Positions 2,060-16,775 of a DNA stretch of 32,000 nucleotides are shown piece after piece; the first letter of the stretch is position 1, and every line of letters starts with the position of its first letter. Where the stretch lies: the NCBI RefSeq assembly GCF_000196555.1, contig NC_015067.1, positions 1,170,001-1,202,000 of the forward strand. Direction: 5' to 3'. The notes under the pieces are model-generated. The model saw only the letters and a program-made list of their open reading frames with translations. It ran no database searches and was not told the origin of the DNA. The stretch comes from Bifidobacterium longum subsp. longum JCM 1217 (GTDB lineage: Bacteria > Actinomycetota > Actinomycetes > Actinomycetales > Bifidobacteriaceae). The position numbers and the translations under genes were made by a program.

Positions 2060-2821
2060 TTACTGGTTGTCCGTCTTGCCGAACATGAGGGCCTGGCTGA
2101 CGCGTCGGCTGGGGCCGGTGAATTCGATGAGGCGTCCGTGGTGGACGATGCGGTCGATGATCGCGGCGGCGAGTTTGTCGTCGGCGAAGATCGTCCCCCA
2201 TTTGCTGAACTCGATGTTCGTGGTGAAGATGATGCTGCGCCGCTCGTAGCTGCCGGCGATGATCTGGTAGAGGAGGCGGGCCCCGTCGATGTCGAAGGGC
2301 ACGTAGCCGAACTCGTCGAGGATGATCAGGTCGGCACGGGCGAGGTCTTTGAGCAGGTTGTCGAGGGCGCCGTCGCGTTTGGCCTTGCCGAGCTGGAGCA
2401 CGAGCTCCGCGGTCTGCCGGAACCTCACGCTCCTGCCTTGCTCGATGGCGAGCATGCCCAGGGCGGTGGCCAGGTGGGTCTTGCCGCGTCCCGTCTTGCC
2501 GTAGAACACGAGGTCCTGCGCCTTGGCCACGAAATCGAGGCCGGTCAGCTGCTCCTTGGTGTATCCGTCGGGCAGGCGCACGTTCGCGAAGTCGTAGCCG
2601 TCGAGGCTTTTGGGCACCGGGAACCGGGCCTGGCGCATGAGCCTTGCCCGTTTGGAGGCCTCCCTGTTGGCCAGTTCCGTGGCGAGCATGCGGTCGATGG
2701 CGTCCAGTTGGCGGGGCGTGGCCCATTCGAGCGTTTCGTCGATGGTGGCCTGCGAGATGAACAGGCTCCTCGCCCGCTCGCGCAGCGGGCCGGGGTCGGT
2801 CCGTCCGTTCTTCTGGTTCAC
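2060..2821 (-). CDS. istB: IS21-family helper ATPase IstB
   Basis: It lies in the frame of ORF 2060..3133. The GTG start (complement 2819-2821) overlaps the istA stop. Motifs seen: VNQKNGRT..., FYGKTGRGKTHLATALG (Walker A), LIILDEFGYVP (Walker B) and FTTNIEFSKWG. Confidence 0.9.
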   Translation of the reverse strand: MNQKNGRTDPGPLRERARSLFISQATIDETLEWATPRQLDAIDRMLATELANREASKRARLMRQARFPVPKSLDGYDFANVRLPDGYTKEQLTGLDFVAKAQDLVFYGKTGRGKTHLATALGMLAIEQGRSVRFRQTAELVLQLGKAKRDGALDNLLKDLARADLIILDEFGYVPFDIDGARLLYQIIAGSYERRSIIFTTNIEFSKWGTIFADDKLAAAIIDRIVHHGRLIEFTGPSRRVSQALMFGKTDNQ

Positions 2822-4284
2822 TCGTCCTCCTTGGTGTAGGCGATGTCGTATTCGCTCAGGTCCACGGGGTCGTCGTAGGCCACGGGTCCCAGGCCCGAGG
2901 CGTGGCGTGCCGCGGCCAGACATACCCCGGCCCGGTCCGTGCCTCCGGTGGATTCGAGGATCTCGAGCATGCCGGCCACGGCCGCCCGCCAGCCGCTCTC
3001 GCCGTCGGCGTGCAGCAGGGCACGCAGGCTGTCGCGCCGCGTGGCCTCGTCCTGCGCGTCGATCCATTCGCGAAGCGGGTCGGGCATCGCGTCGCGCACC
3101 CGGCTGTTGCGCCAGGCCGCCGGCCGGTCGCACAACAGCCCGAGCTGGCTCGACGGGTCGCCGCTGTCGGTCGGCTTGTCCCCGTAGGACCTCGGATGCG
3201 TGATCACGCGTTTGCCTTCGGCATCGAGGATCTCCACCTCCAGGGCCCTCAGGCCGACGATCATCTCATGGCCGGCGTGTTCGGGTCCGGCCGCGTACCG
3301 GTGGCGGCCCTGGACGGTGACGTTTCCGTATTTGTCGGCCTTCATCCTCGTCCACGTGACCACGTCGAACGGCTTGGCGGGCAGGGGCAGCAGCGCCTTG
3401 CGATCATCCTCGAACAGGCCGGCCTGGCTCTCGCCCTTCCTGTAATGGTCCTTGTCCCCCAGCTCGAGACAGCGGTCGGGAAGGCGCAGGTTGAAGTTGT
3501 CGAGGCTCCACACGCTGGGCACCGGCACGAACAGCCTTCGGCGCACGGCCCCGACCCTGGCCTCGACCGCGCCCTTCTCGTGGCCCGAGTACGGGTTGCA
3601 GAACGAGTACTCGAACCCGTAATGGGCCTGGAACGCCTGGAACAGGCGGGTCAGGCGGATCTCGTCGAACCGTCGGCGGCCCACGCCGGCGGCATTGTCG
3701 TACACGATGCGCCGGGGCACCCCGCCCAGCCATTCGAACAGGTTAAGCAAAGCCTGACACGTGCATTCCGCGTTCTCCCCGGGCATCAGCTGGCACGGCG
3801 AGATGTTCGAGTACGGGAAATCCAACACGAAATGCCGCATCCGCGTCACGACGCCCCGGTAGCGCACGTCGACCTGGCCGAAGTCCGCCTGGCATTCGCC
3901 CGGATGCCACGACAGGTCCAGGAAACCCATCTCGCGCTCCGCCATGAACTCACGCTTCAACCGGGCCACCGTCCGGGTCACCGTCGACAACGACGCCTCC
4001 ACCCCGTACTCGTCACGCAACCGCTCGTGGATGCGCGTCGCCGTGTGACGTTGCTTGTGCCAGGTCTCCCGGTCCTCGGCGAGCATGCCCTCGATCACGG
4101 GAATCCACTCGTCGAGCACCGAGCCACGGCGTCTCCTTACCGGAGGCCTGGCCGACAGGTCGTCGGCCTTGAGATACTTGCGCACGGTCGGCTCGCTGAC
4201 CTTCTCGCCGCGCGCGATCGAGGCGACGGACTCCCCATTCCTGCGCCTCTGACGGATAGACTGTATTTTGGGCATGCTGATCAT
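2818..4284 (-). CDS. istA: IS21-family transposase IstA
   Basis: ORF 2818..4284 encodes 488 aa. It has an N-terminal HTH (SVASIARGEKVSEPTVRKYL) and DDE-type core segments (CQADFGQVDV, IVYDNAAGVG, NPYSGHEKGAVEARVG). It sits immediately upstream of, and overlapping, istB. Confidence 0.9.
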   Translation of the reverse strand: MISMPKIQSIRQRRRNGESVASIARGEKVSEPTVRKYLKADDLSARPPVRRRRGSVLDEWIPVIEGMLAEDRETWHKQRHTATRIHERLRDEYGVEASLSTVTRTVARLKREFMAEREMGFLDLSWHPGECQADFGQVDVRYRGVVTRMRHFVLDFPYSNISPCQLMPGENAECTCQALLNLFEWLGGVPRRIVYDNAAGVGRRRFDEIRLTRLFQAFQAHYGFEYSFCNPYSGHEKGAVEARVGAVRRRLFVPVPSVWSLDNFNLRLPDRCLELGDKDHYRKGESQAGLFEDDRKALLPLPAKPFDVVTWTRMKADKYGNVTVQGRHRYAAGPEHAGHEMIVGLRALEVEILDAEGKRVITHPRSYGDKPTDSGDPSSQLGLLCDRPAAWRNSRVRDAMPDPLREWIDAQDEATRRDSLRALLHADGESGWRAAVAGMLEILESTGGTDRAGVCLAAARHASGLGPVAYDDPVDLSEYDIAYTKEDE

Positions 4285-4426: not shown

Positions 4427-4714
4427 CATCCGGTAGAGGGGGTCGCGGGCGTTCTCGCGTCCCTTGCGGGCCGCCTCGGCCGGGGTGACGCCGGGCTTGG
4501 CGTGGATGAACCGGTGGATGGTGGTCCCGTTCACGTTGAGGGCGGCGATGCCGGTGGGCGCGAGGGTGAGCGTGTTGCGCGGCGCGATCGTGCTTCGCCA
4601 ATGGTTGACGAGGGTGCTTTTGCCCGTGCCCGCCTTGCCGGTCAGGATCGAGACGCCCTGGGGTTCGGACAGCATGGCGAGCGCCTTCGCGTCGAAAGTG
4701 AGGTCTTCGGTCAT
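4419..4714 (-). pseudogene. PIF1/RecD-like helicase, N-terminal fragment (Walker A)
   Basis: ORF 4403..4714 reads [36 protein letters not shown]...LAPTGIAALNV...DPLYRMLGA, then runs into the IS end (VCVQ, stop). Joining 4419 to 1975 and removing one GCGCCCAG copy restores ...[17 protein letters not shown]... in frame. Confidence 0.85.
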
Positions 4715-4748
4715 GCGCCGGGGTATGCGTCAGTCGGCCTCCGGGCCG

Positions 4749-5045
4749 TGTATGCATTCCGGCCGGGCTGTATGCATCCGTATGCATCAGGGGATGCATA
4801 CACGCCCGTTCTCCGTTTCGGCTTGTTTCCAGCGTTCCGGGGCGGCCTCCACGCGTGTATGCATTGTATGCATCATTCCCTTATAGAGGATTCGGGAAAA
4901 GGAAGGAAACCCCATATATTGATGCATACAATGCATACAAGATAAAGGAATTATATTTTTTCCTTTATTTATAAGGGTTTTCGGGCTTTTTCCGGGCTTT
5001 TTCTGTATGCATCCCCGGATGCATACAGATGCATACATGCATACA
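4749..5045. repeat. GTATGCAT box array, copy 1 (12 boxes; contains a 20-bp-arm inverted repeat at 4856-4875 / 4920-4939)
   Basis: Forward boxes (GTATGCAT) start at 4750, 4770, 4780, 4857, 4866 and 5005. Reverse boxes (ATGCATAC) start at 4794, 4922, 4931, 5019, 5029 and 5037. TGTATGCATTGTATGCATCA and TGATGCATACAATGCATACA are exact reverse complements separated by 44 bp. The array lies directly upstream of the helicase ATG (4712-4714). Confidence 0.9.
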
Positions 5046-5245: not shown

Positions 5246-5299
5246 GGGTTCGGACAGCATGGCGAGCGCCTTCGCGTCGAAAGTGAGGTCTTCGGTCAT
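5246..5299 (-). pseudogene. duplicated first 18 codons of the helicase gene ([18 protein letters not shown]) with no continuation
   Basis: The stretch from 5246 onward repeats the stretch from 4661 almost base for base. After SEP the reading frame diverges into non-helicase sequence. Confidence 0.8.
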
Positions 5300-5334
5300 G
5301 CGCCGGGGCATGCGTCCGATCGGCCTCCGGGCCG

Positions 5335-5631
5335 TGTATGCATTCCGGGGCGCGTGTATGCATCCGTATGCATCAGGGGATGCATACATGCCCGTTCTTC
5401 GTTTCGGCTTGTTTCCAGCGTTCCGGGGCGGCCTCCACGCGTGTATGCATTGTATGCATCATTCCCTTATAGGGGATTCGGGAAAAGGAAGGAAACCCCT
5501 TATATTGATGCATACAATGCATACAAGAGAAAGGAATTCTGTTCTTTCCTTTATATATAAGGGTTTTCGGGCTTTTTCCAAGCTTTTTCTGTATGCATCC
5601 CCGGATGCATACAAATGCATACATGCATACA
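5335..5631. repeat. GTATGCAT box array, copy 2 (12 boxes; 20-bp-arm inverted repeat at 5442-5461 / 5506-5525)
   Basis: It has the same box order and orientation as copy 1. It is part of a 385/386-bp direct repeat (4661-5045 versus 5246-5631). Confidence 0.9.
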
Positions 5632-5641
5632 GAACAGGCCG

Positions 5642-5764
5642 GGGGGACGTCACGATTGGCTGTACAGATGGACGCTGTACAGCCACACCGGGGCGTTGGT
5701 GAGGAAAATCCTCGCTAAGGACGTCGGACTGTCGGAGGTCGAGATTCGGGAGATACTCAAATGA
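5642..5764 (+). pseudogene. hicA: hicA toxin remnant (C-terminal ~27 codons only)
   Basis: There is no start codon. The frame ending at TGA 5762-5764 reads ...YSHTGALVRKILAKDVGLSEVEIREILK, which resembles the HicA C-terminus (xLRKAILKQLGLS type). Its stop overlaps the hicB ATG as ATGA. The 5' part has been replaced by box-array copy 2. Confidence 0.45.
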
Positions 5765-5985
5765 GCGCACACGTGAAATCAGTGAAGATCGTATACCACC
5801 GTGACGAGGGCGCATGGTGGGCCGACTCCCCGGACATGCCGGGATTCTCCGCCGTCGGGGACACCTTCGACGACACGAGGAAGCTTGCCCTCGAGGGCAT
5901 CCCCTTCTACTTCGATGGCAATAGGCCCGATATCGTGGACGAGCGCATGGAGAACGGGGCGAGCCTGAAGCCCACGAGACCGTAA
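5761..5985 (+). CDS. hicB: HicB-family antitoxin (short form)
   Basis: The 74-aa ORF reads VKIVYHRDEGAWWADSPDMPGFSAVGDTFDDTRKLALEGIPFYF. This matches the HicB N-terminal domain pattern (dg.wwa.vpdlPG..a.GdT.ee). Confidence 0.7.
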   Translation: MSAHVKSVKIVYHRDEGAWWADSPDMPGFSAVGDTFDDTRKLALEGIPFYFDGNRPDIVDERMENGASLKPTRP

Positions 5986-6046
5986 GACGCAACCCGGACG
6001 CCGTTCCGGGGGCGCATGTCACATCAAAGCTTAGAATCCCCCGGCT

Positions 6047-6870
6047 TTAGCCGTGGGGAGAAGTCAAATCATCCGAAGCGAGAAAAGGCCGGTCTTGGTA
6101 GAACGTCTCGCCAACACTACCGTTGTAGCATACGGTAATTGTATTGGCTGGGTGCATATTCTCGGTATTACCGACCATTGCGGTGCAACCGTTGTTCATC
6201 GCAGAAGAACCGATAAAGCGTATATCACCCGGAATCATATTTGCTTTTGTCAGCCTTGTTCCTTTAACAACGTCAAACAGCTTCCAAATAACAAACTCCT
6301 GCCATTCGGCTATGCCCAGCGCATGCTTGCTCTCATCGGCTTGCCTCAGCCTCTCAAGGCTTGCTTCAGACTCTCAAGGCTTGCTTCAGACTCTTTCATG
6401 ACTGCCGACATGTACTCGTCCATGTAAGCCCAATCAGGCTCGCCGGACGTATCAACGGGCAAACGAATCATTTCGTCTTCTATAGTCTTGGAATTTAACT
6501 GGTCAGAATACGTATATTTGGTCAGTGACTGGCGAATCACAGACGAAACAAATAGTCCCGACAGTTCTGTTAAACCTGCATTGTGCAACATCAAGATTGC
6601 AGAACCAGCACCACCACGACCCAGAAAAGGCTTGGCTTGATAAAAAGCTGAACCATCAATCGGACTTACTGTGATGCAATTTCCTGCATCCAGCACTTCA
6701 TCATCTTTTGGCTTACACCACTTAGTGACACCATTGTTGAAATTTCCAGATGCAACAAAAGGAATATTTCCGTCTTCATACTTTGCTTGACTACGAGCAA
6801 CTGGTCGCTTTATTTCAAACAACTTACCTATCTTGAACTCTTTCCATCCGTTCGTATCAATCTTCGCCAT
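6047..6870 (-). pseudogene. hsdS: HsdS-like specificity subunit, frameshifted and 3'-truncated
   Basis: ORF 6346..6870 holds TRD1 plus the central helix (GNIPFVASGNFNNGV...ITVSPIDGSAFYQAKPFLGRGG...SEASLESLKQALRG, stop). ORF 6047..6238, with its open upstream frame (LERLRQADESKHALGIAEWQEFVIWKLFDVVKGTRLTKANMIPGDIRFIGSSAMNNG...YNGSVGETFYQDRPFLASDD), holds TRD2 in a different frame. TRD2 ends abruptly without a distal conserved helix. Confidence 0.8.
6351..6390. repeat. perfect 20-bp tandem duplication (CTCTCAAGGCTTGCTTCAGA x2) inside the hsdS central helix
   Basis: 6351-6370 equals 6371-6390. Removing one copy reads ...KESEASLERLRQADESKHALGIAEWQEF..., which fuses TRD1 and TRD2 in frame. Confidence 0.9.
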
Positions 6871-8659
6871 CGCCGTCTCCGCCTTTCCTCATGGTTACGG
6901 TCACGGACTTGTCATCGGCGCTCACTCGGCTCGAATACATCGCTGTGTCCAGCAGCTTCTCGCCGAACTCCTTTGCGTCGATGCCCTGCCGGAACATCAG
7001 GTAGTCCATCGCCGTCTTGCGGAAGTCCTCCTCGAATATCTCGAACGGCTTCTGCGGCATCTGATAGGACAGGTGCTCGGCGGGGTTCACCCACTGGCAT
7101 GTATCGTCGCCGGACTGCTTCTCGACCACATCGACCCAATGAGCCTCAATGGCCGCCCACTTGCCGTAGACGTCATGGCGTCCCTTGTTCTTGACCGTCG
7201 CCAGACCATCGGACTCCATGTAACAGGCGAAAAACTCCTTGCCGTCCTGTCCGACGCCCGCCTCGAACACGAAGATGCTCGTGGTCACGCCCACGCCGAA
7301 GAACAGGTCTTCCGGCAGCTTGATGACCTTGCGCAGGCGATGGTTCTTCAGAATGCGCTTCATCTGCGCCTTCGATGCTTTCTCCAGCTTCTTGTCCGGC
7401 AGGATGAACGCGCACTGGGTATGTGCGGGAACGCTGTCCATCACGTTCTCGACGATGGTCATGCAGCCGTACTTGTTCTCGTACGGCGGGTTCATCAGCA
7501 CCTTCGTGATCGGCTTGGACTGCATCCATTCGTTGGCTGCATCCGTGCGAGTATCCATCTGTTCAAGGTTCGTCTTGCCGTCCTTGTGAATCAGCATGTT
7601 CGCGCACGCCAGCGCGTAAATCTCGCGGTCGAACTCGATGCCGTAGAGCTGCTTGGATTTAATCTCGCCGGCCTTCTTCGTTTCCATGCCGCCGGCCTCG
7701 CGAATCATGTTCGCCATGGCCTTCACGAGGAAGCCGCCGGAACCGCACGTGGCGTCCAGAACGCAGTCGTCCATGTTCACTTCGAGAATCTTGTATATGA
7801 AGTCCGTGATGTGCTCGGGCGTGAATATCTGCCCCGATTCGGACTTTTTCTTGTAACGGTTGAACTCGTTGAAGAAAATGCCCATCACGTCCTCGCCGCG
7901 CCATTCGTTCGAGTTGACGCACTCGGAAATCTCGACGACCCAGTCGATGAAGTCATTGATTGCCTTCTGGTTGTCGGTCGTGTTCATCTTGATGTCGGAA
8001 TATTCCTCCAGCAGGATGTCAATTTTCGCATTCTGTTTGCGACTGGCTATCAATGATTTTGCAAGCGTCGAGTGAATCGCCGTATGGAACGTCTCATACC
8101 CAAGGTCTTTCAGACGCTTCAATCCCGCACCGTAACGCTCGGCAACCAACGCGCATGCCGTGAAAATCATGCGGTGGTACAGGTTCTTGATGCCGAACTC
8201 GAAATGCAGGCAGTTGTTGATACGTGCCGTCAGCTGGTAGATGCGCTCCTTGTCGATGCTATCGACGGTATAGAGCGACAGGTAATAGCCGACATGCTGC
8301 AACTTGTCGGGCGTCTTGACTTCCTCCTCGCCCTTGAACACGCGCACATCCTCGCCGTTGTACAAAACGCCGACAACCTTCTCATATTGTGTCTGCATGA
8401 TGCGGACGTTCTTCAGCACCTCGTCCACCTGCGCCTTGCCCAGGGCAATGCGCGTCGCCTTCGTCTCCAACACCAGCGCTACATCCGCCTTGTTCTTCGG
8501 TAGATACCAGCCGTCCGGCTTGTCGGCAATGCCTGAAAATCCGAGCTGGTTGAACGTCGTGAGCTGGCCAACGCCGGCACAAGCCAAATCACTATCCGCA
8601 AGTCCAAGAATGTCACGTGCCAAATCGCGCACGGCATCCTCTGTCATATTCTTCGCCAC
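6857..8659 (-). CDS. N6-adenine DNA methyltransferase subunit with an N-terminal PD-X15-ExK nuclease-like motif (HsdM-like; possibly a BcgI-A-like type IIB R-M subunit)
   Basis: The product is 600 aa. It carries VLDATCGSGGFL (motif I) and LMNPPY (motif IV). N-terminal residues 48-67 read PDGWYLPKNKADVALVLETK. The gene overlaps the specificity gene by 14 nt. No hsdR is visible in the window. Confidence 0.85.
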   Translation of the reverse strand: MAKNMTEDAVRDLARDILGLADSDLACAGVGQLTTFNQLGFSGIADKPDGWYLPKNKADVALVLETKATRIALGKAQVDEVLKNVRIMQTQYEKVVGVLYNGEDVRVFKGEEEVKTPDKLQHVGYYLSLYTVDSIDKERIYQLTARINNCLHFEFGIKNLYHRMIFTACALVAERYGAGLKRLKDLGYETFHTAIHSTLAKSLIASRKQNAKIDILLEEYSDIKMNTTDNQKAINDFIDWVVEISECVNSNEWRGEDVMGIFFNEFNRYKKKSESGQIFTPEHITDFIYKILEVNMDDCVLDATCGSGGFLVKAMANMIREAGGMETKKAGEIKSKQLYGIEFDREIYALACANMLIHKDGKTNLEQMDTRTDAANEWMQSKPITKVLMNPPYENKYGCMTIVENVMDSVPAHTQCAFILPDKKLEKASKAQMKRILKNHRLRKVIKLPEDLFFGVGVTTSIFVFEAGVGQDGKEFFACYMESDGLATVKNKGRHDVYGKWAAIEAHWVDVVEKQSGDDTCQWVNPAEHLSYQMPQKPFEIFEEDFRKTAMDYLMFRQGIDAKEFGEKLLDTAMYSSRVSADDKSVTVTMRKGGDGDGED

Positions 8660-8889
8660 TACTCATCCACCTCCTCAAGATACTCCTGCACCCACTCGTG
8701 GATGATTGCGGCAATCGTCGTCCCACGCTCCGCAGCCGTCATCTTGAGCGCCTTCTTGTCGCTCACGGTGAGCGACAGCGAGAGCGTGGTGCGCTTCTCG
8801 TCCGCCGTCGTGTCGGCGACGACGGCCTCCTCTGTCTTCTTCTGCCCGGCCTCGCGGTCGGCGGCGTATTGCTCGAACATGTTCGCCAT
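8659..8889 (-). CDS. ribbon-helix-helix (CopG/Arc-like) DNA-binding protein
   Basis: I start it at MANMFEQY..., which is preceded by AAAGGAGG with 7-nt spacing. The segment TLSLSLTVSDKKALKMTAAERGTTIAAIIHEWVQEYL fits a beta-strand plus two-helix pattern. Its stop overlaps the methyltransferase start by 1 nt. Confidence 0.65.
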   Translation of the reverse strand: MANMFEQYAADREAGQKKTEEAVVADTTADEKRTTLSLSLTVSDKKALKMTAAERGTTIAAIIHEWVQEYLEEVDE

Positions 8890-8910
8890 GGCCCGACCTC
8901 CTTTAATCAT

Positions 8911-8926
8911 TTGCACAATTGCACAA
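8911..8926. promoter_or_regulatory. tandem 8-mer TTGCACAA TTGCACAA, candidate operator of the RHH/methyltransferase operon
   Basis: This direct repeat lies about 20 bp upstream of the RHH start, in the AT-rich divergent region between the RHH gene (-) and the exonuclease gene (+). RHH proteins typically bind tandem or inverted short repeats. Confidence 0.4.
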
Positions 8927-9066
8927 TCATACATCTTGCTTTATGGGATGCGCAGACGGAACATCGCCCTGACCTCCCAGAAGTGCCGGGACCGCACCCC
9001 GCGGAACCTTCCCAAGCATCCCCGTGGGATCCGCCCCCGTGGAATGCGTGACGCATACCCGGGGGC

Positions 9067-9624
9067 ATGAGCACACACGACAATGATGACAAGCCGGTCC
9101 GCCTCCTGTGGGTGGACACGGAGACCACGGGCCTCGACCCACGCAAGGATCCCATCCTCGAGATCGGCATGATCGCCACCGGCCCCGACCTGAAGCCGGT
9201 GGACGACGGGTTCCACACGACCGTCCACTGGGAAGGCAAACCATCCGAATTCATCCAGGGCATGCACGGGCCCAACGGACTGCTCGCCGAATGCGCGCAC
9301 CCGAGCGCCCCCCACATGTTCGCCGCCGCCCTGTCCGCACGCGACTACGTGGCCCGACACCTCGGCCAGGGGGTCCGCCTCCTGCCCGCCGGCAGCACCG
9401 TCCGCTTCGACCGGGACATGATCGACAGCTGGATGCCCGGCGTGCTCGACGGCTGCTCCCACCGGTCCCTGGACATCAGCGCCGTCTGCGAGGCCGTCCG
9501 CATGTGGAACCCCGCGATCCTGCCCGACATGGAACCGTCCACCGACCACCGGGTCATGCACTGCCTGGCCGACACGCTCCGCTACGCGCGCGCATACCGG
9601 GGGCTCATATGCTCGATCGGCTGA
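9067..9624 (+). CDS. oligoribonuclease (Orn)-like DEDDh 3'-5' exonuclease
   Basis: LLWVDTETTGLDPRKDPILEIGMIATGPDL..., GSTVRFDRDMI...HRSLDISAV...WNP and DHRVMHCLADTLRYARAYR are collinear with Orn ([52 protein letters not shown]..YYR). Confidence 0.75.
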   Translation: MSTHDNDDKPVRLLWVDTETTGLDPRKDPILEIGMIATGPDLKPVDDGFHTTVHWEGKPSEFIQGMHGPNGLLAECAHPSAPHMFAAALSARDYVARHLGQGVRLLPAGSTVRFDRDMIDSWMPGVLDGCSHRSLDISAVCEAVRMWNPAILPDMEPSTDHRVMHCLADTLRYARAYRGLICSIG

Positions 9625-13823: not shown

Positions 13824-16775
13824 TCAGGCGCGCCTGCGGTTGCGCAGCGCGAACGCGGCGCCCAGGCCGGCGAGCAGCATGCCGGCCGCGACGGCGGGCA
13901 GGACGCCCGTGCCGGTGGAGGCGAGCTGCTTCTCCCTGACGGTCACGGTCTCGTTCGGCTTGCGCGCGTCGCCATAGGAGACGAGCCTGCCCGTCTGGTC
14001 GTACACCTTCTCACGCCAGTAGTAGGTGCCGGTCTCCTTGACGGTCACGGTCGGCGAGTGGACGCCGTCCTTCGCGCCGACCTTGCCGGTGACGGTGATG
14101 AGCACGTCTCCCGACTGGTCTCCGTTGGCCTGCTTCCACAGTTCGAATTCGGCCTTGGCTGCCTGCTCGCAGTTCTTGAGCAGGAGCTCGTCGTGCAGGT
14201 CGGCCCTGCCGTTCTCCAACGTGACCTCACCCTGGCTCCTGGTGGACACCTCGCACCTGGGCGTTTCGGGCTTCCTGCCTTGGACGCGCACGATTTCGGA
14301 TGCGAGGCCGAAAGCGTGCTGCACCCTGCCGTGGGTGAGCTGACGCCAGGCCAAGGCGGCGAGCGGATTATGGTTCTGGTCGCCGGTCAGGCTCGGTGTC
14401 ATGACCCAATGCCAAGCGTAGGTGCCCGATTCGGTCAGGGTGAACGAGTCGGTCGTGTAGGTGCCGAACCTGGTGACGTCCTTGATGTCGGCCTCGTGAA
14501 CCTTCACCGCGTTTTCGGGCACGGTGTCGGTCTGTTCGATCGCGGCGGACGGGTCGTCACTCACCTTGTAGAGGACGCCGTGGAAGTCGAGGCTCAACGG
14601 GGTGCTCTTCGCGGTCTCGCCTTCGGTGACGTTAGTCTCCGGGTAGGTGGGCCACACGTCCTTTTCGTTGGTCTTGGCGACGACGAGCTTGTCGATGGTG
14701 GTCTCCCCCGCCTTGACTTCCTTGCTGGACACCGTGGAGTCGAGCTTCGGGGTGAGGCGGAACATGACGGTCTCATCCGCGGTGAACGGAGCCTCATGAA
14801 CATCCTTGGCGAACGGATAGTCCCTGGACGGTTCGATGCCGGTCTGGTTTTCCGTGTCCTGATCCTTGTTCGCGATGTCGAACACGAACGTGGCGTATCC
14901 GGATGGCAGGTTCGTCAGATTCACACCATCCTCGGCCTTCCATTGGGCGACAGGCTTGTCCTCGTCACTGCTGGAAATCAGGTAGTCGCCGGCCTTGTTC
15001 GTGGTGAACGTGGCGGTGGCGAGCTTCACGGCCTGCTTGGGCAGTTCGACGGTCTTGCCTGCGGCGGTATCCTTCTGAGCCTGTTCGGCCTGTTCGCGGG
15101 TCATACCACCGTAGATGGTGCCATTCACGGTAAGCGTGATCTGGTTGTCTTCCGTTTCCTTGCCTTCGCCCTGACCGTCCTTGGTGTGCAGCCAGTCCTG
15201 GGTGTCGACCTTGCCGTCACCGTTCACGTCGGTCACGTTGAGTGTGACCTTATCGCGGATGACGCTGCCCTTTTCAAGGTAGACGACATCGGTCTTGTCG
15301 GATGCCTGAGCGGAACCGATTTGCACGCTCGGACGTTCGGTGCCGTCGGCGCCGGTCACCGTGCTCTGATCGGTCTTGTAGGCGTCGCTCACACTCGACT
15401 TGATGGTCGGCTGCATGTTGCGCACGTGCTGAGTGGATTCCGCTTCGAGCACGTTGTCGGACCAGTCGTAGTCCGTGGACAGGTACTGCTTCATGTTGGC
15501 GTCCTGCATGTCGGGCGTGATCTGCCACACCCACGTGTACCAGCCGGTGTCCGGCAGGCTCGACGGGGTGGCTCCCGGGTGCGTCTTCACGAAGTCGGGG
15601 TCCATGGTGATGGAGGCGGCGTCCACGTGATTGGTGGCGCCGTCCCTGTCGCCGGCGGCGGTCGCGGTCGCGGCCTTCACCCCATCCTTGACGGTCGTCC
15701 GGCCTTCGACCGGCTTGTTCGCGAAGTAGTAGAGGGTGCCGGTGCTCTTGATGGTCGCGCCTTCAATCCAGTCGCCGCCCGTCGGGTCCACATGCCAGGT
15801 CAGATCGTCTTCGGGCGCATGCCCGTATTCGATGCGATGATCCGACTGGTCGGACTGGATGGTCGGCTTGAAGTTGTTCAGCACCTCGAACTGGATGTTC
15901 TCCGACACGGTCTCGGGATCAGAGGGACCCATCAGGTTCTGGTTCGGGGAGCTCAGCTTGACGGCCTTCGGGATCTTTCTCCATACGCTCCACGTCACTT
16001 TGCCGTTGCCCGTTGCCGTCCACGGAAGGTGGATCGCCTGACCTGTGGTGGTGCCGCTGATCGTGTTCGTCTTGGTCTGGTCGAACACGGCCGGGCCGTT
16101 CAGGGTCGCCGTGTACTGGATGCCCGCGATTTCGACGCCGTTCTCGGTCGTGATGCTCGGGGTGACCGTTCCCTTGCGTTTGCCGATGGTGTACTGGTAT
16201 CTCATGTCGAGGTTCGAGGGCGTGTTGGCGACCGCCTCCGTCCACAGGCTGTTCATTTTGGCCGTGTACGTGTCCCAGCTGGTGCCGTCCTTCCAGCCGA
16301 GGCGTTCGATGCCCGACAGGTATTCGTTGCCCATCGGGTCGAGCTTCTGGTGGATGAGGCCTGCGATCGCGGCCTGCGTGAGGTCGTCCGTGTTCCCGTT
16401 GTACTTGTCGGTCAGCCATGCGAGCCGCTGCGCGTCCGGTTTCGTCTTCGCGTCGGTCCACTCGCCCCACGTGCCCGCCGTGCCCGTGTAGAGCGTGTCG
16501 GCCTGGATGCAGTACACGTTCTTCCCGTTGACCTTGTCGACCACGCCGAGCGACTGCTCCATGCCCTCGTACTTGTGTCCGTTGCTGAACGTGATCGTGC
16601 CCAGGTTCGCCCACAGGCCCGGGTTGCCGTTCTGGATGGAGCGCTCAAACGGATCACGCATGTCGGCCGCGTCCGCCGTGCCCGCGACGAGCATGCCCGC
16701 CGCCAGGGTGGCGGCTGCCGCGACGCCCGCGGCGAGCGTGCGCGCCCAGTGTCTGTCGTTATGAGTCGAACCCAT
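13824..16775 (-). CDS. LAxTG-anchored surface adhesin with an N-terminal thioester (TQxA) domain and Ig-like repeat domains
   Basis: I start it at MGSTHNDRHWARTLAAGVAAAATLAAGMLVAGTADA (signal peptide), preceded by GAAAGGAAAC. The segment GKNVYCIQAD...AQRLAWLTDKYNG..DDLTQAAIAGLIH matches the Cys...TQxA(I/V)W thioester-domain pattern. The C-terminus reads LASTG, then a hydrophobic stretch, then RNRRRA. Confidence 0.8.
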   Translation of the reverse strand: MGSTHNDRHWARTLAAGVAAAATLAAGMLVAGTADAADMRDPFERSIQNGNPGLWANLGTITFSNGHKYEGMEQSLGVVDKVNGKNVYCIQADTLYTGTAGTWGEWTDAKTKPDAQRLAWLTDKYNGNTDDLTQAAIAGLIHQKLDPMGNEYLSGIERLGWKDGTSWDTYTAKMNSLWTEAVANTPSNLDMRYQYTIGKRKGTVTPSITTENGVEIAGIQYTATLNGPAVFDQTKTNTISGTTTGQAIHLPWTATGNGKVTWSVWRKIPKAVKLSSPNQNLMGPSDPETVSENIQFEVLNNFKPTIQSDQSDHRIEYGHAPEDDLTWHVDPTGGDWIEGATIKSTGTLYYFANKPVEGRTTVKDGVKAATATAAGDRDGATNHVDAASITMDPDFVKTHPGATPSSLPDTGWYTWVWQITPDMQDANMKQYLSTDYDWSDNVLEAESTQHVRNMQPTIKSSVSDAYKTDQSTVTGADGTERPSVQIGSAQASDKTDVVYLEKGSVIRDKVTLNVTDVNGDGKVDTQDWLHTKDGQGEGKETEDNQITLTVNGTIYGGMTREQAEQAQKDTAAGKTVELPKQAVKLATATFTTNKAGDYLISSSDEDKPVAQWKAEDGVNLTNLPSGYATFVFDIANKDQDTENQTGIEPSRDYPFAKDVHEAPFTADETVMFRLTPKLDSTVSSKEVKAGETTIDKLVVAKTNEKDVWPTYPETNVTEGETAKSTPLSLDFHGVLYKVSDDPSAAIEQTDTVPENAVKVHEADIKDVTRFGTYTTDSFTLTESGTYAWHWVMTPSLTGDQNHNPLAALAWRQLTHGRVQHAFGLASEIVRVQGRKPETPRCEVSTRSQGEVTLENGRADLHDELLLKNCEQAAKAEFELWKQANGDQSGDVLITVTGKVGAKDGVHSPTVTVKETGTYYWREKVYDQTGRLVSYGDARKPNETVTVREKQLASTGTGVLPAVAAGMLLAGLGAAFALRNRRRA

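Follow-up and report, generated by a model that had tools for sequence, protein, structure and literature searches.

A probable BcgI-like restriction-modification cassette with a half-size specificity gene on a conjugative element of Bifidobacterium longum

The 32,000-nt stretch of the Bifidobacterium longum subsp. longum JCM 1217 genome analysed here (the window, whose positions serve as coordinates throughout) carries three overlapping minus-strand genes that share one orientation. They encode, in this order, a small ribbon-helix-helix (RHH) protein, a 600-residue methyltransferase with an additional N-terminal domain, which we refer to as the RM protein for its proposed restriction and modification functions, and an HsdS-like specificity (S) protein. 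A previous reading of the window, made from the sequence alone (hereafter the sequence-only reading), had described these genes as a restriction-modification (R-M) cassette without hsdR and had already drawn attention to both gene overlaps. The features discussed below are listed here; related loci from other genomes are given as L numbers.

8659 to 8889, minus strand: RHH gene of 76 aa, whose stop codon overlaps the GTG start codon of the RM gene by 1 nt (TAGTG)
6857 to 8659, minus strand: RM (methyltransferase) gene of 600 aa, with a GTG start
8315 to 8659, minus strand: predicted PD-(D/E)xK nuclease domain, residues 1 to about 115, with the proposed catalytic residues E7, D49, E65 and K67 (from conservation and an AlphaFold2 model)
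7880 to 8302, minus strand: all-helical connector, residues about 120-260, as predicted by AlphaFold2; the PADLOC REase_MTase_IIG match starts at residue 114
7070 to 7879, minus strand: gamma-class N6-adenine methyltransferase domain, residues about 261-530 (from Pfam and from PDB matches by sequence and fold)
6857 to 7069, minus strand: C-terminal helices and tail, residues about 531-600 and the stop codon, with AlphaFold2 helices at 543-557 and 562-575
6346 to 6870, minus strand: HsdS-like gene of 174 aa, half-size, with one target recognition domain (TRD) and one conserved helix; it shares 14 nt with the RM gene and has a Pfam Methylase_S match
6352 to 6391, minus strand: 20-bp tandem duplication, GTCTGAAGCAAGCCTTGAGA twice (copies at 6372-6391 and 6352-6371), in the central conserved region of the S gene
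about 6047 to 6345, minus strand: remnant of a second TRD, out of frame and truncated at its 3' end, with 97% DNA identity to the first TRD of the L010 S gene
8897 to 8903, minus strand: ribosome-binding site AAGGAGG, 7 nt before the ATG at 8889 and conserved in L007, L018 and L020
8911 to 8926, minus strand: operator-like direct repeat, TTGTGCAA twice on the coding strand, 22-37 nt upstream of the RHH start
8926 to 8931, minus strand: -10-like hexamer TATGAT, inferred by eye, whose last base is the first base of the repeat

The methyltransferase identity of the RM protein, proposed by the sequence-only reading, is borne out by its gamma-class order of motifs: in the METHYLTRANSFERASE protein, motif I (DATCGSGGF(L)) is located at residue 302 and motif IV (NPPY) at residue 390. 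The domain that contains them matches HsdM, BpuSI, BsaXI and DrdV in the PDB by both sequence and fold, and the Pfam N6_Mtase match (3e-29) begins only at about residue 262. The helical region that precedes it (residues about 120-260) corresponds to the N-terminal helical domain of HsdM and to the multi-helical connector of type IIB and type IIG enzymes. The helices at the C-terminus are presumed, by analogy with HsdM and BsaXI, to form the docking region for the coiled coil of the S subunit.

The remaining, N-terminal part of the RM protein is the one to which a nuclease function has been ascribed. Residues 48-67 read PDGWYLPKNKADVALVLETK and provide the arrangement P48-D49-X15-E65-x-K67, in which the sequence-only reading had seen a PD-(D/E)xK-type signature. 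Residues 1-260 define a family of 318 clusters at 50% identity. Among 24 aligned full-length members, with identities down to 34%, E7, D8, G31, Q32, P48, D49, W51, P54 and K67 are conserved almost without exception, and glutamate or aspartate occupies position 65 in every one of them. Similarly, across the 150 best representative clusters, E7 is present in 100 of 100 cases, D49 in 113 of 114, K67 in 111 of 114 and E65 in 108 of 112, with aspartate in another three. An AlphaFold2 model computed with the 24-sequence alignment (predicted local distance difference test score, pLDDT, 84.9) shows an N-terminal alpha-beta-beta-beta-alpha-beta domain, composed of helix 7-18, strands 26-30, 50-54 and 60-66, helix 75-88 and strand 94-100. 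It places D49 at the start of strand 50-54 and E65 and K67 at strand 60-66, as in the canonical PD-(D/E)xK core, whereas a model predicted from the single sequence was unusable (pLDDT 33). An ordinary helical HsdM N-terminus, which the earlier reading had named as the finding that would speak against a nuclease, is not seen, residues 1-115 being predicted to adopt an alpha/beta fold.

Comparisons at the level of the family point in the same direction. The Pfam PD-(D/E)xK nuclease family HSDR_N_2 is matched by four of 23 RM family members, among them P0233 with 37.7 bits (cut-off 25) over residues 52-148, in columns that include its RPD and VEAK, and other members match NucS_C, FokI_cleav, Cas4 and PDDEXK_1. 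When compared with the PDB, a profile of residues 1-135 yields a weak match to EndoMS/NucS (E 0.076), in which LETK is aligned with the catalytic LELK; a sequence search of the PDB with residues 1-260 gave no match. In BsaXI, the matching E...D...ExK tetrad, made up of E73, D90, E105 and K107, was shown by mutagenesis to be essential (PMC11997821), and E53 of BcgI belongs to the same PD...ExK motif (PMC3592470). The conservation pattern and the predicted fold support the view that the RM protein bears both a PD-(D/E)xK endonuclease site and a gamma-class N6-adenine methyltransferase.

Comparisons of the complete proteins also bear on the class of enzyme. Foldseek, whose ranking is dominated by the methyltransferase domain, aligns the complete chain with BpuSI, BsaXI and DrdV over 615-650 columns; its top-ranked match is the HsdM structure 2okc with 435 columns, and other HsdM-type matches cover approximately 350-550 columns. 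Among the PADLOC models, two REase_MTase_IIG profiles (614 and 637 positions) match the RM protein with 6e-39 and 1e-38, narrowly ahead of MTase_I (6e-36), while Specificity_II (341 positions; 2e-16) comes far ahead of Specificity_I (1.5e-4) for the S protein. The ratio of nonsynonymous to synonymous substitution rates (dN/dS) amounts to about 0.05 across the RM gene as a whole and to 0.05-0.07 within its nuclease part. Moreover, in relatives of 750-830 aa a single TRD is fused to the C-terminus, so that these represent single-chain forms that combine restriction, modification and specificity.

RM family members were found in 377 species-level genomes from many phyla and groups, including Actinomycetota, Bacillota, Akkermansia, Saccharibacteria, spirochaetes and Bacteroidales, and some of them are 85-96% identical across phyla. 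The frequency of such high identities indicates horizontal movement of the family. The RM-S pair is found on mobile carriers such as a mobilisable element with genes for a relaxase, ParA and a serine recombinase next to smpB, an integrase island of Bacillus cereus and a plasmid of Lactobacillus iners. We retrieved 80 loci and compared their gene neighbourhoods. In 55 of the 80, an S gene of 328-370 aa comes directly after the RM gene and overlaps it; in another 14, this S gene measures 171-194 aa. None of the 80 shows a conserved large partner near this pair, the large flanking open reading frames (ORFs) being mutually unrelated. HsdR was not detected among the ten of 35 large flanking ORFs that were scanned against Pfam, which encode FtsK, YobI, glycosidases, TraG, SecA, ClpB, a C5 methylase and a recombinase. 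Likewise, hsdR is absent within 10 kb on either side of the cassette in four B. longum loci (L013-L016), which bears out the earlier claim of a cassette without hsdR and also covers the case, raised in the same context, of such a gene lying just outside the window. In Bifidobacterium pseudocatenulatum (L001-L003), a 598-aa RM homologue with 90% identity is followed by a 199-aa single-TRD S gene and then by an unannotated gene of 311 aa; GmrSD-like and SocA/Panacea genes lie nearby, so that this region looks like a defence island.

The S gene differs from the description given by the sequence-only reading, which had assigned two TRDs to it. The 20-bp duplication shifts the reading frame and leads to a stop codon at 6346-6348, giving a product of 174 aa; a single copy of the unit would keep the frame open into the second TRD, which in the window is reduced to the remnant listed above. 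Compared with intact S proteins, this remnant ends after '...FLASDD', comprises about 90 residues and lacks the second conserved helix. In relatives outside this Bifidobacterium lineage, the unit is present once and the S protein is intact, with two TRDs and, in these one-copy relatives, a length of 353-364 aa. The metagenomic relatives L007 and L008 share the duplication but are followed by a different and even shorter remnant. Both copies of the unit start with GT in B. longum and with GG in L007 (12269-12308) and L008 (2544-2583), a lineage-specific difference suggesting either that the unit was duplicated independently or that gene conversion took place. A degenerate third copy, GGCTGAGGCAAGCCGATGAG, is already present 20 nt downstream in the ancestral S sequence, suggesting that the site may be slippage-prone. 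Contigs from JGI metagenomes contain neither the one-copy nor the two-copy pattern of the unit and are hence uninformative.

We considered and rejected an assembly or sequencing error as the source of the short S gene, since the identical 174-aa ORF is present in several complete genomes and on 191 contigs. Half-size S genes also exist elsewhere in the family: 12 of the 14 short S genes of relatives are natural half-S genes with no downstream remnant of a second TRD. Their tails end 22-27 residues after PDWxYM, and that of the window protein ends 24 residues after it. Furthermore, the stop codon of the 174-aa ORF is constant, while the remnants downstream of it decay differently in different lineages. 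Together, the constant stop codon, the occurrence on 191 contigs and the natural half-S proteins of like size and tail suggest that the 174-aa product is maintained; the dN/dS value of 0.28 for the S gene is based on only 10 substitutions and does not decide the matter. Half-S proteins that act as homodimers on palindromic sites have been described for truncated S subunits of EcoR124I and EcoDXXI and for the natural NgoAV system with its fragmented S gene (PMC3874165). The size and tail of the window protein make such a homodimer on a palindromic site plausible, and by analogy with these cases the 174-aa half-S most likely homodimerises and reads a palindromic bipartite site.

Two further loci show related arrangements. 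On the Lactobacillus iners plasmid NZ_CP049227.1 (L097), S is encoded at 5760-6793 by two ORFs of 173 and 152 aa, 54 nt apart, which follow a 596-aa RM homologue. In Nanosynbacter (L039), an S ORF of 177 aa precedes a second half that shares 99% identity with the corresponding half of the intact L048 S gene. A split of S at the central helix thus recurs in the family.

The identification of the small upstream gene as an RHH gene agrees with a profile of the protein and its homologues, which matches AvtR, ORF56, MazE7, CopG and ParG in the PDB, and with Pfam RHH_1, which is matched by 7 of 11 RHH homologues. Its start codon is probably the ATG at 8889, which follows AAGGAGG and yields the 76-aa protein called in all related genomes, whereas the ATG at 8934 is an unlikely start. 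Given a start at 8889, the tandem 8-mer TTGCACAATTGCACAA at 8911-8926, one of just three places in the 32 kb with such a tandem repeat of an 8-mer, lies upstream of the RHH gene rather than inside it. The exact repeat is lineage-specific, and close relatives have the imperfect versions TTGTGCAAATGTGTAA and TTGTACAAATGTTTAA at the same place. At the position of the -10-like hexamer, relatives show TATAAT or CATAAT, to which L018 and L020 add TGGACA 17 nt upstream. Terminator-like sites within 5900-9100 occur at chance level.

Comparison of the loci provides information on the possible role of this gene. A small gene abuts the RM start in 28 of the 76 loci with a complete RM gene. In most cases it encodes an RHH protein, of several types, but four of these genes encode Cro/C1-type helix-turn-helix (HTH) proteins (L043, L064, L073 and L094) and three encode Phd/YefM-like proteins, with the unrelated regulators each preceded by repeats of their own. 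The interchangeability of these small regulators fits a controller role. The earlier proposal that an RHH protein fills the place normally taken by a controller (C) protein was unsupported in the form in which it was put, and it has to accommodate an association of this RHH type with ParA, as discussed below. Nevertheless, the position of the gene, its overlap with the RM gene, the repeats beside the -10-like element and the exchange for HTH proteins in relatives speak for it, making the RHH protein, as judged from sequence, a plausible stand-in for a C protein.

We therefore interpret the cassette at 6047-8931, with a probability of roughly 0.7, as a BcgI-like (type IIB or split type IIG) R-M system that is carried as cargo on a B. 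longum conjugative element. The kind of system is already known, and it is the annotation that is too thin: the RM-S pair belongs to an uncharacterised family within the type IIB or split type IIG enzymes. As a BcgI-like system, it would be expected to use AdoMet and Mg2+ and to work independently of ATP. Domain content, conservation of the catalytic residues, gene order, the lack of HsdR in the neighbourhoods examined and the broken S gene are established directly. From them we infer cleavage activity, cutting on both sides of the site, dimerisation of the half-S and regulation by the RHH protein. In the RM fusion, a PD-(D/E)xK nuclease would be followed by a helical connector, a gamma-class N6-adenine methyltransferase and S-docking C-terminal helices. 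In intact relatives, two RM chains would assemble with a single two-TRD S subunit into an A2B complex like those of BcgI and BsaXI, and this complex would either methylate its bipartite site or cut unmodified DNA at fixed distances on both sides, without the need for an HsdR motor. The allele in the window would instead most likely form an (RM)2(S-half)2 complex on a palindromic bipartite site. The RHH protein, in turn, would most likely bind the direct repeats beside the -10-like element and repress the RHH-RM-S operon, thereby limiting expression of the nuclease when the element enters a new host.

Several observations weigh against this interpretation. Pfam and NCBIfam match nothing on the N-terminus of the RM protein of the window itself, and its N-terminal 113 residues are not matched by the nuclease parts of the PADLOC type IIG and type IIB profiles, so that its placement in the nuclease superfamily is based on transitive homology, the conserved motif and the predicted fold. 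A strict sigma-70 consensus scan of 5900-9100 returned no promoter, including upstream of the RHH gene. In addition, the RHH type of the window follows ParA or a ParA remnant in L010-L012, L017, L018 and L019, and the full-length RHH protein aligns weakly with Pfam ParG (E 0.039); based on the ParA linkage, it may derive from, or double as, a ParG/omega-type partition protein or repressor. Finally, the S gene is damaged, and if its 174-aa product does not dimerise, there would be neither methylation nor cutting in this strain.

Among the systems already characterised, the one in the window is closest to BcgI in its organisation and to a stripped-down BsaXI in structural terms. BcgI (type IIB, A2B) likewise has two genes and no HsdR; its A chain combines an N-terminal PD...ExK motif (E53) with a gamma-class N6-adenine methyltransferase, and its HsdS-like B subunit is separate (PMC3592470). 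The intact relatives of the window system also have a separate S subunit, of 341-364 aa, and the best PADLOC models for RM and S include those of 637 and 341 positions. By contrast, the nuclease domain of the window protein has no detectable similarity to the PADLOC type IIG and type IIB profiles, the match starting at residue 114 at the earliest; its S protein is reduced to one TRD, and an RHH gene precedes the operon. Double-sided cutting, a property of BcgI, is a prediction for the window system. Thus, the earlier suggestion of a BcgI-like makeup stands as far as the nuclease-methyltransferase chain, the HsdS-like partner and the lack of HsdR are concerned, but it does not apply to the S subunit, which has a single TRD here: a separate two-TRD S beside the RM gene is the arrangement of the 55 loci with the longer S genes, whereas only the 174-aa single-TRD ORF is intact in the window. 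BsaXI (type IIB, (RM)2S; cryo-electron microscopy structures 8w0p and 8w2p) shares the order of nuclease, connector and methyltransferase as well as the E...D...ExK tetrad (PMC11997821), and its Foldseek alignment with the RM protein spans about 615 columns. However, the BsaXI RM chain is 916 aa long and includes a 'knob' and a 'paddle' that are absent from the 600-aa protein, and the similarity in sequence between the two is confined to the methyltransferase core.

The assembly logic of the system, including the use of half-S homodimers, is shared with the M2S1 cores of type I enzymes (EcoKI, EcoR124I) and with the 'type 1 1/2' enzyme M.AhdI (2M+2S) (PMC3874165), as are the methyltransferase fold and the HsdS-type S subunit. 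Unlike these, the RM protein has an added N-terminal nuclease, and neither an HsdR motor nor a separate type II endonuclease gene is present; the combination typical of type I systems, a purely helical HsdM N-terminus together with an ATP-dependent HsdR, is not found. NgoAV, a type IC system in which the hsdS gene is fragmented and the product of its first ORF reads palindromic GCA N8 TGC as a homodimer, resembles the window in having a frame-shifted S gene in which the first ORF contains one complete TRD and the C-terminal part is dead (PMC3874165). It differs in being a classical type I system with HsdR; in the window, S is interrupted by a 20-bp tandem duplication, and a functional half-S is proposed here by analogy. 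The C proteins of type II R-M systems offer the closest parallel to the RHH gene, as they are small DNA-binding proteins encoded first in the operon, next to the gene for the toxic enzyme and with repeats on the promoter side (PMC3874152), and some RM relatives carry true Cro/C1-type HTH proteins at the RHH position. Yet C-protein operons are characterised by an HTH controller of the Xre/Cro-like kind, whereas the window protein has the RHH fold (as in omega, PaaR, CopG and ParG) and possibly originates from a partition module. To our knowledge, RHH regulators of the omega, PaaR, CopG and ParG kind act solely as repressors. Three features set the system apart: its nuclease domain is divergent and escapes standard profile libraries, an RHH protein takes the place of an HTH protein and, in this strain, S is a half-S.

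Four other explanations have to be weighed against the BcgI-like interpretation. One of them takes the locus for the decaying remnant of a former BcgI-like system, whose recognition function was inactivated by the S frameshift and 3' truncation and which is now being lost. The out-of-frame and truncated second TRD, the variation among lineages in what is left 3' of the 174-aa ORF and the scarred surroundings, with an IS21 element, a 586-bp duplication and a truncated hicA beside a short hicB, would all agree with such a course. However, the RM gene is intact and its dN/dS remains at about 0.05 even between two lineages that both carry the duplication and hence a broken S gene, which argues against a dead locus. 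The stop codon of the 174-aa ORF has stayed constant despite the independent decay downstream, the exact S protein is found on 191 contigs and the exact RM protein on 106, natural half-S genes of equal size are common in the family, and truncated S subunits are functional as homodimers in type IC systems (PMC3874165). Decay therefore appears rather unlikely. It is even less probable, at a level close to negligible, that the genes constitute a normal type I M-S pair which is orphaned or relies on an hsdR gene elsewhere, and in which the PD...ExK motif is a chance match within the HsdM N-terminal domain. Public databases (NCBI and JGI) do name the RM protein 'HsdM family methyltransferase', 'type I restriction enzyme M protein' or 'N-6 DNA methylase', and its best PDB matches in sequence and fold are HsdM subunits. 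On the other hand, the RM protein has no Pfam HsdM_N match, residues 1-115 are predicted as alpha/beta, and the HsdM-like helical region is located at residues 120-260, so that the nuclease domain is an addition to it rather than a part of it. The near-invariance of the motif residues over 150 clusters, the HSDR_N_2 matches of some members and the first rank of RM-fusion and type II specificity models in PADLOC are equally at odds with a chance match, as is the lack of HsdR both in the neighbourhoods of the 80 loci, as far as the ten scanned ORFs go, and within 10 kb in L013-L016.

A further alternative leaves the nuclease-like domain in place but without cutting activity, and regards the pair as a methyltransferase that protects the conjugative element from restriction by its recipients. 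The presence of RM-S pairs on conjugative and mobilisable elements is in line with this idea, but we consider it improbable: nearly every cluster retains the full set of four catalytic-type residues, purifying selection acts on the domain, a toxic product would be expected to come with its own repressor upstream, and PADLOC ranks the RM protein with RM fusions. The last alternative concerns only the RHH gene, which could be the leftover of a ParA-RHH module and encode a centromere-binding protein of the ParG/omega type, with the repeats serving as its partition site or as the operator of the module. An intact ParA (CbiA) gene is found directly upstream of a related RHH gene in L010-L012 and L017, C-terminal ParA remnants precede an RHH gene of the window type in L018 and L019, and the weak alignment with Pfam ParG, which extends from end to end, is paralleled by one with ParG in the PDB (1p94). 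Against this, the window, L007-L009 and L013-L016 all lack ParA but have retained the RHH gene together with RM and S. The homology between the window and L007 begins just upstream of the -10-like element, and in L018 and L020 the promoter (TGGACA-17-CATAAT) and the repeats are situated between the ParA remnant and the RHH gene, which indicates that RHH-RM-S has a promoter of its own. Moreover, the stop codon of the RHH gene and the start codon of the RM gene overlap, only one of the 76 loci has a ParA Walker A motif within 1.6 kb upstream, as opposed to the 28 with a small RM-abutting gene, and the abutting genes include Cro/C1 HTH proteins of the C-protein kind. A partition leftover is thus conceivable but doubtful. 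Controller and partition roles need not exclude each other, and the omega protein of pSM19035 serves in both partition and repression.

The G+C content is 0.63 for the RHH gene, 0.56 for the methyltransferase gene and 0.44 for the S gene, compared with about 0.70-0.72 in the flanks. The sequence-only reading had delimited an island of lower G+C content at 5650-8930. The drop itself is confirmed, but it starts at about 4500 and takes in the 586-bp duplication, which is unrelated to the cassette, and a hicAB remnant. We therefore rejected a single-unit island, as homology to foreign cassettes spans only approximately 6068-8953 and the segment 4500-6047 consists of the unrelated duplication and the hicAB remnant. 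The neighbouring genes resemble those of a conjugative element and encode a CHAP/lysozyme hydrolase, a large AAA_10 ATPase, a PIF1-like helicase, IS21 proteins and a cell-surface protein. The exact cassette proteins are present in several complete B. longum genomes. A megablast search of the region against phage genomes gave no match, and the plasmid collection returned only the cell-surface protein gene of B. longum megaplasmids, which lies elsewhere in the window. This gene (13912-16742) shares 93% DNA identity with genes on B. longum megaplasmids of about 170-200 kb, which ties the chromosomal element to the megaplasmid gene pool.

Several other features accompany the cassette. Divergent from the RHH-RM-S operon lies a gene for an RNase_T/DEDD-type exonuclease of 185 aa (9067-9624, plus strand; Pfam 2e-8), which adjoins the cassette in each of the four B. 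longum genomes compared. The hicAB toxin-antitoxin remnant (5615-5985, plus strand) is oriented convergently to the S gene. It consists of a 49-aa ORF, whose C-terminus …KILAKDVGLSEVEIREILK resembles the end of a HicA toxin, and a 74-aa HicB-like ORF (Pfam HicB_lk_antitox, E 7e-4), which overlaps the former by 4 nt and seemingly lacks a DNA-binding domain; the truncation point of the second TRD is located about 60 nt past its end. The tandem duplication has a period of 586 bp (4661-5033 and 5246-5619, 94-99% identical) and is dense with direct and inverted copies of TGTATGCAT in an iteron-like manner. It holds the 5' end of a PIF1/AAA_30-like helicase gene, whose N-terminus is thus present twice, and may represent an origin of transfer or replication of the element. 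The IS21-family element (2060-4284, minus strand) comprises istA (488 aa, 2818-4284) and istB (2060-3133, from the first possible start). In related strains, it is flanked by fragments of the PIF1-like helicase gene, and L013 and L014 have other genes in place of IS21 at the corresponding position. A Transposase-2 RNA (Rfam RF03015; 18711-18778, plus strand) scores 60.9 bits, with a gathering score of 42.7; this motif goes with IS605/TnpB-type elements, and TnpB-like genes (OrfB_IS605) are present in related loci.

Beyond the BcgI-like assignment itself, it is tempting to speculate that two features of the family are real, namely that interchangeable repressors control the RM fusion and that a recurrent 20-bp duplication creates a working half-S, although we regard this as tentative at best. 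The controllers may mostly be RHH proteins that were recruited from ParG/omega-type partition modules and replace the textbook HTH C proteins. The duplication, in turn, may recur between 14-nt direct repeats that were already present in the central coiled-coil region of S and may thereby re-target both restriction and modification from an asymmetric to a palindromic site. A palindromic bipartite N6-methyladenine motif is predicted for strains with the 174-aa allele. A palindromic motif that looks unexplained, GCA N8 TGC, has been published for one B. longum strain (PMC4618763).

The members of the family, with two-TRD, split, half-size and fused forms of S, provide a natural series for studying how such enzymes assemble, and if our interpretation is correct, they would include compact type IIB enzymes of 600 aa with an exchangeable S subunit that lend themselves to specificity engineering. 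RM-S systems may also serve as addiction modules that stabilise the conjugative elements hosting them. Public annotation as a plain methylase hides the restriction role of these proteins, which, if true, would constitute self-contained restriction enzymes and hence uncounted barriers to gene transfer into, and genetic manipulation of, gut commensals such as B. longum.

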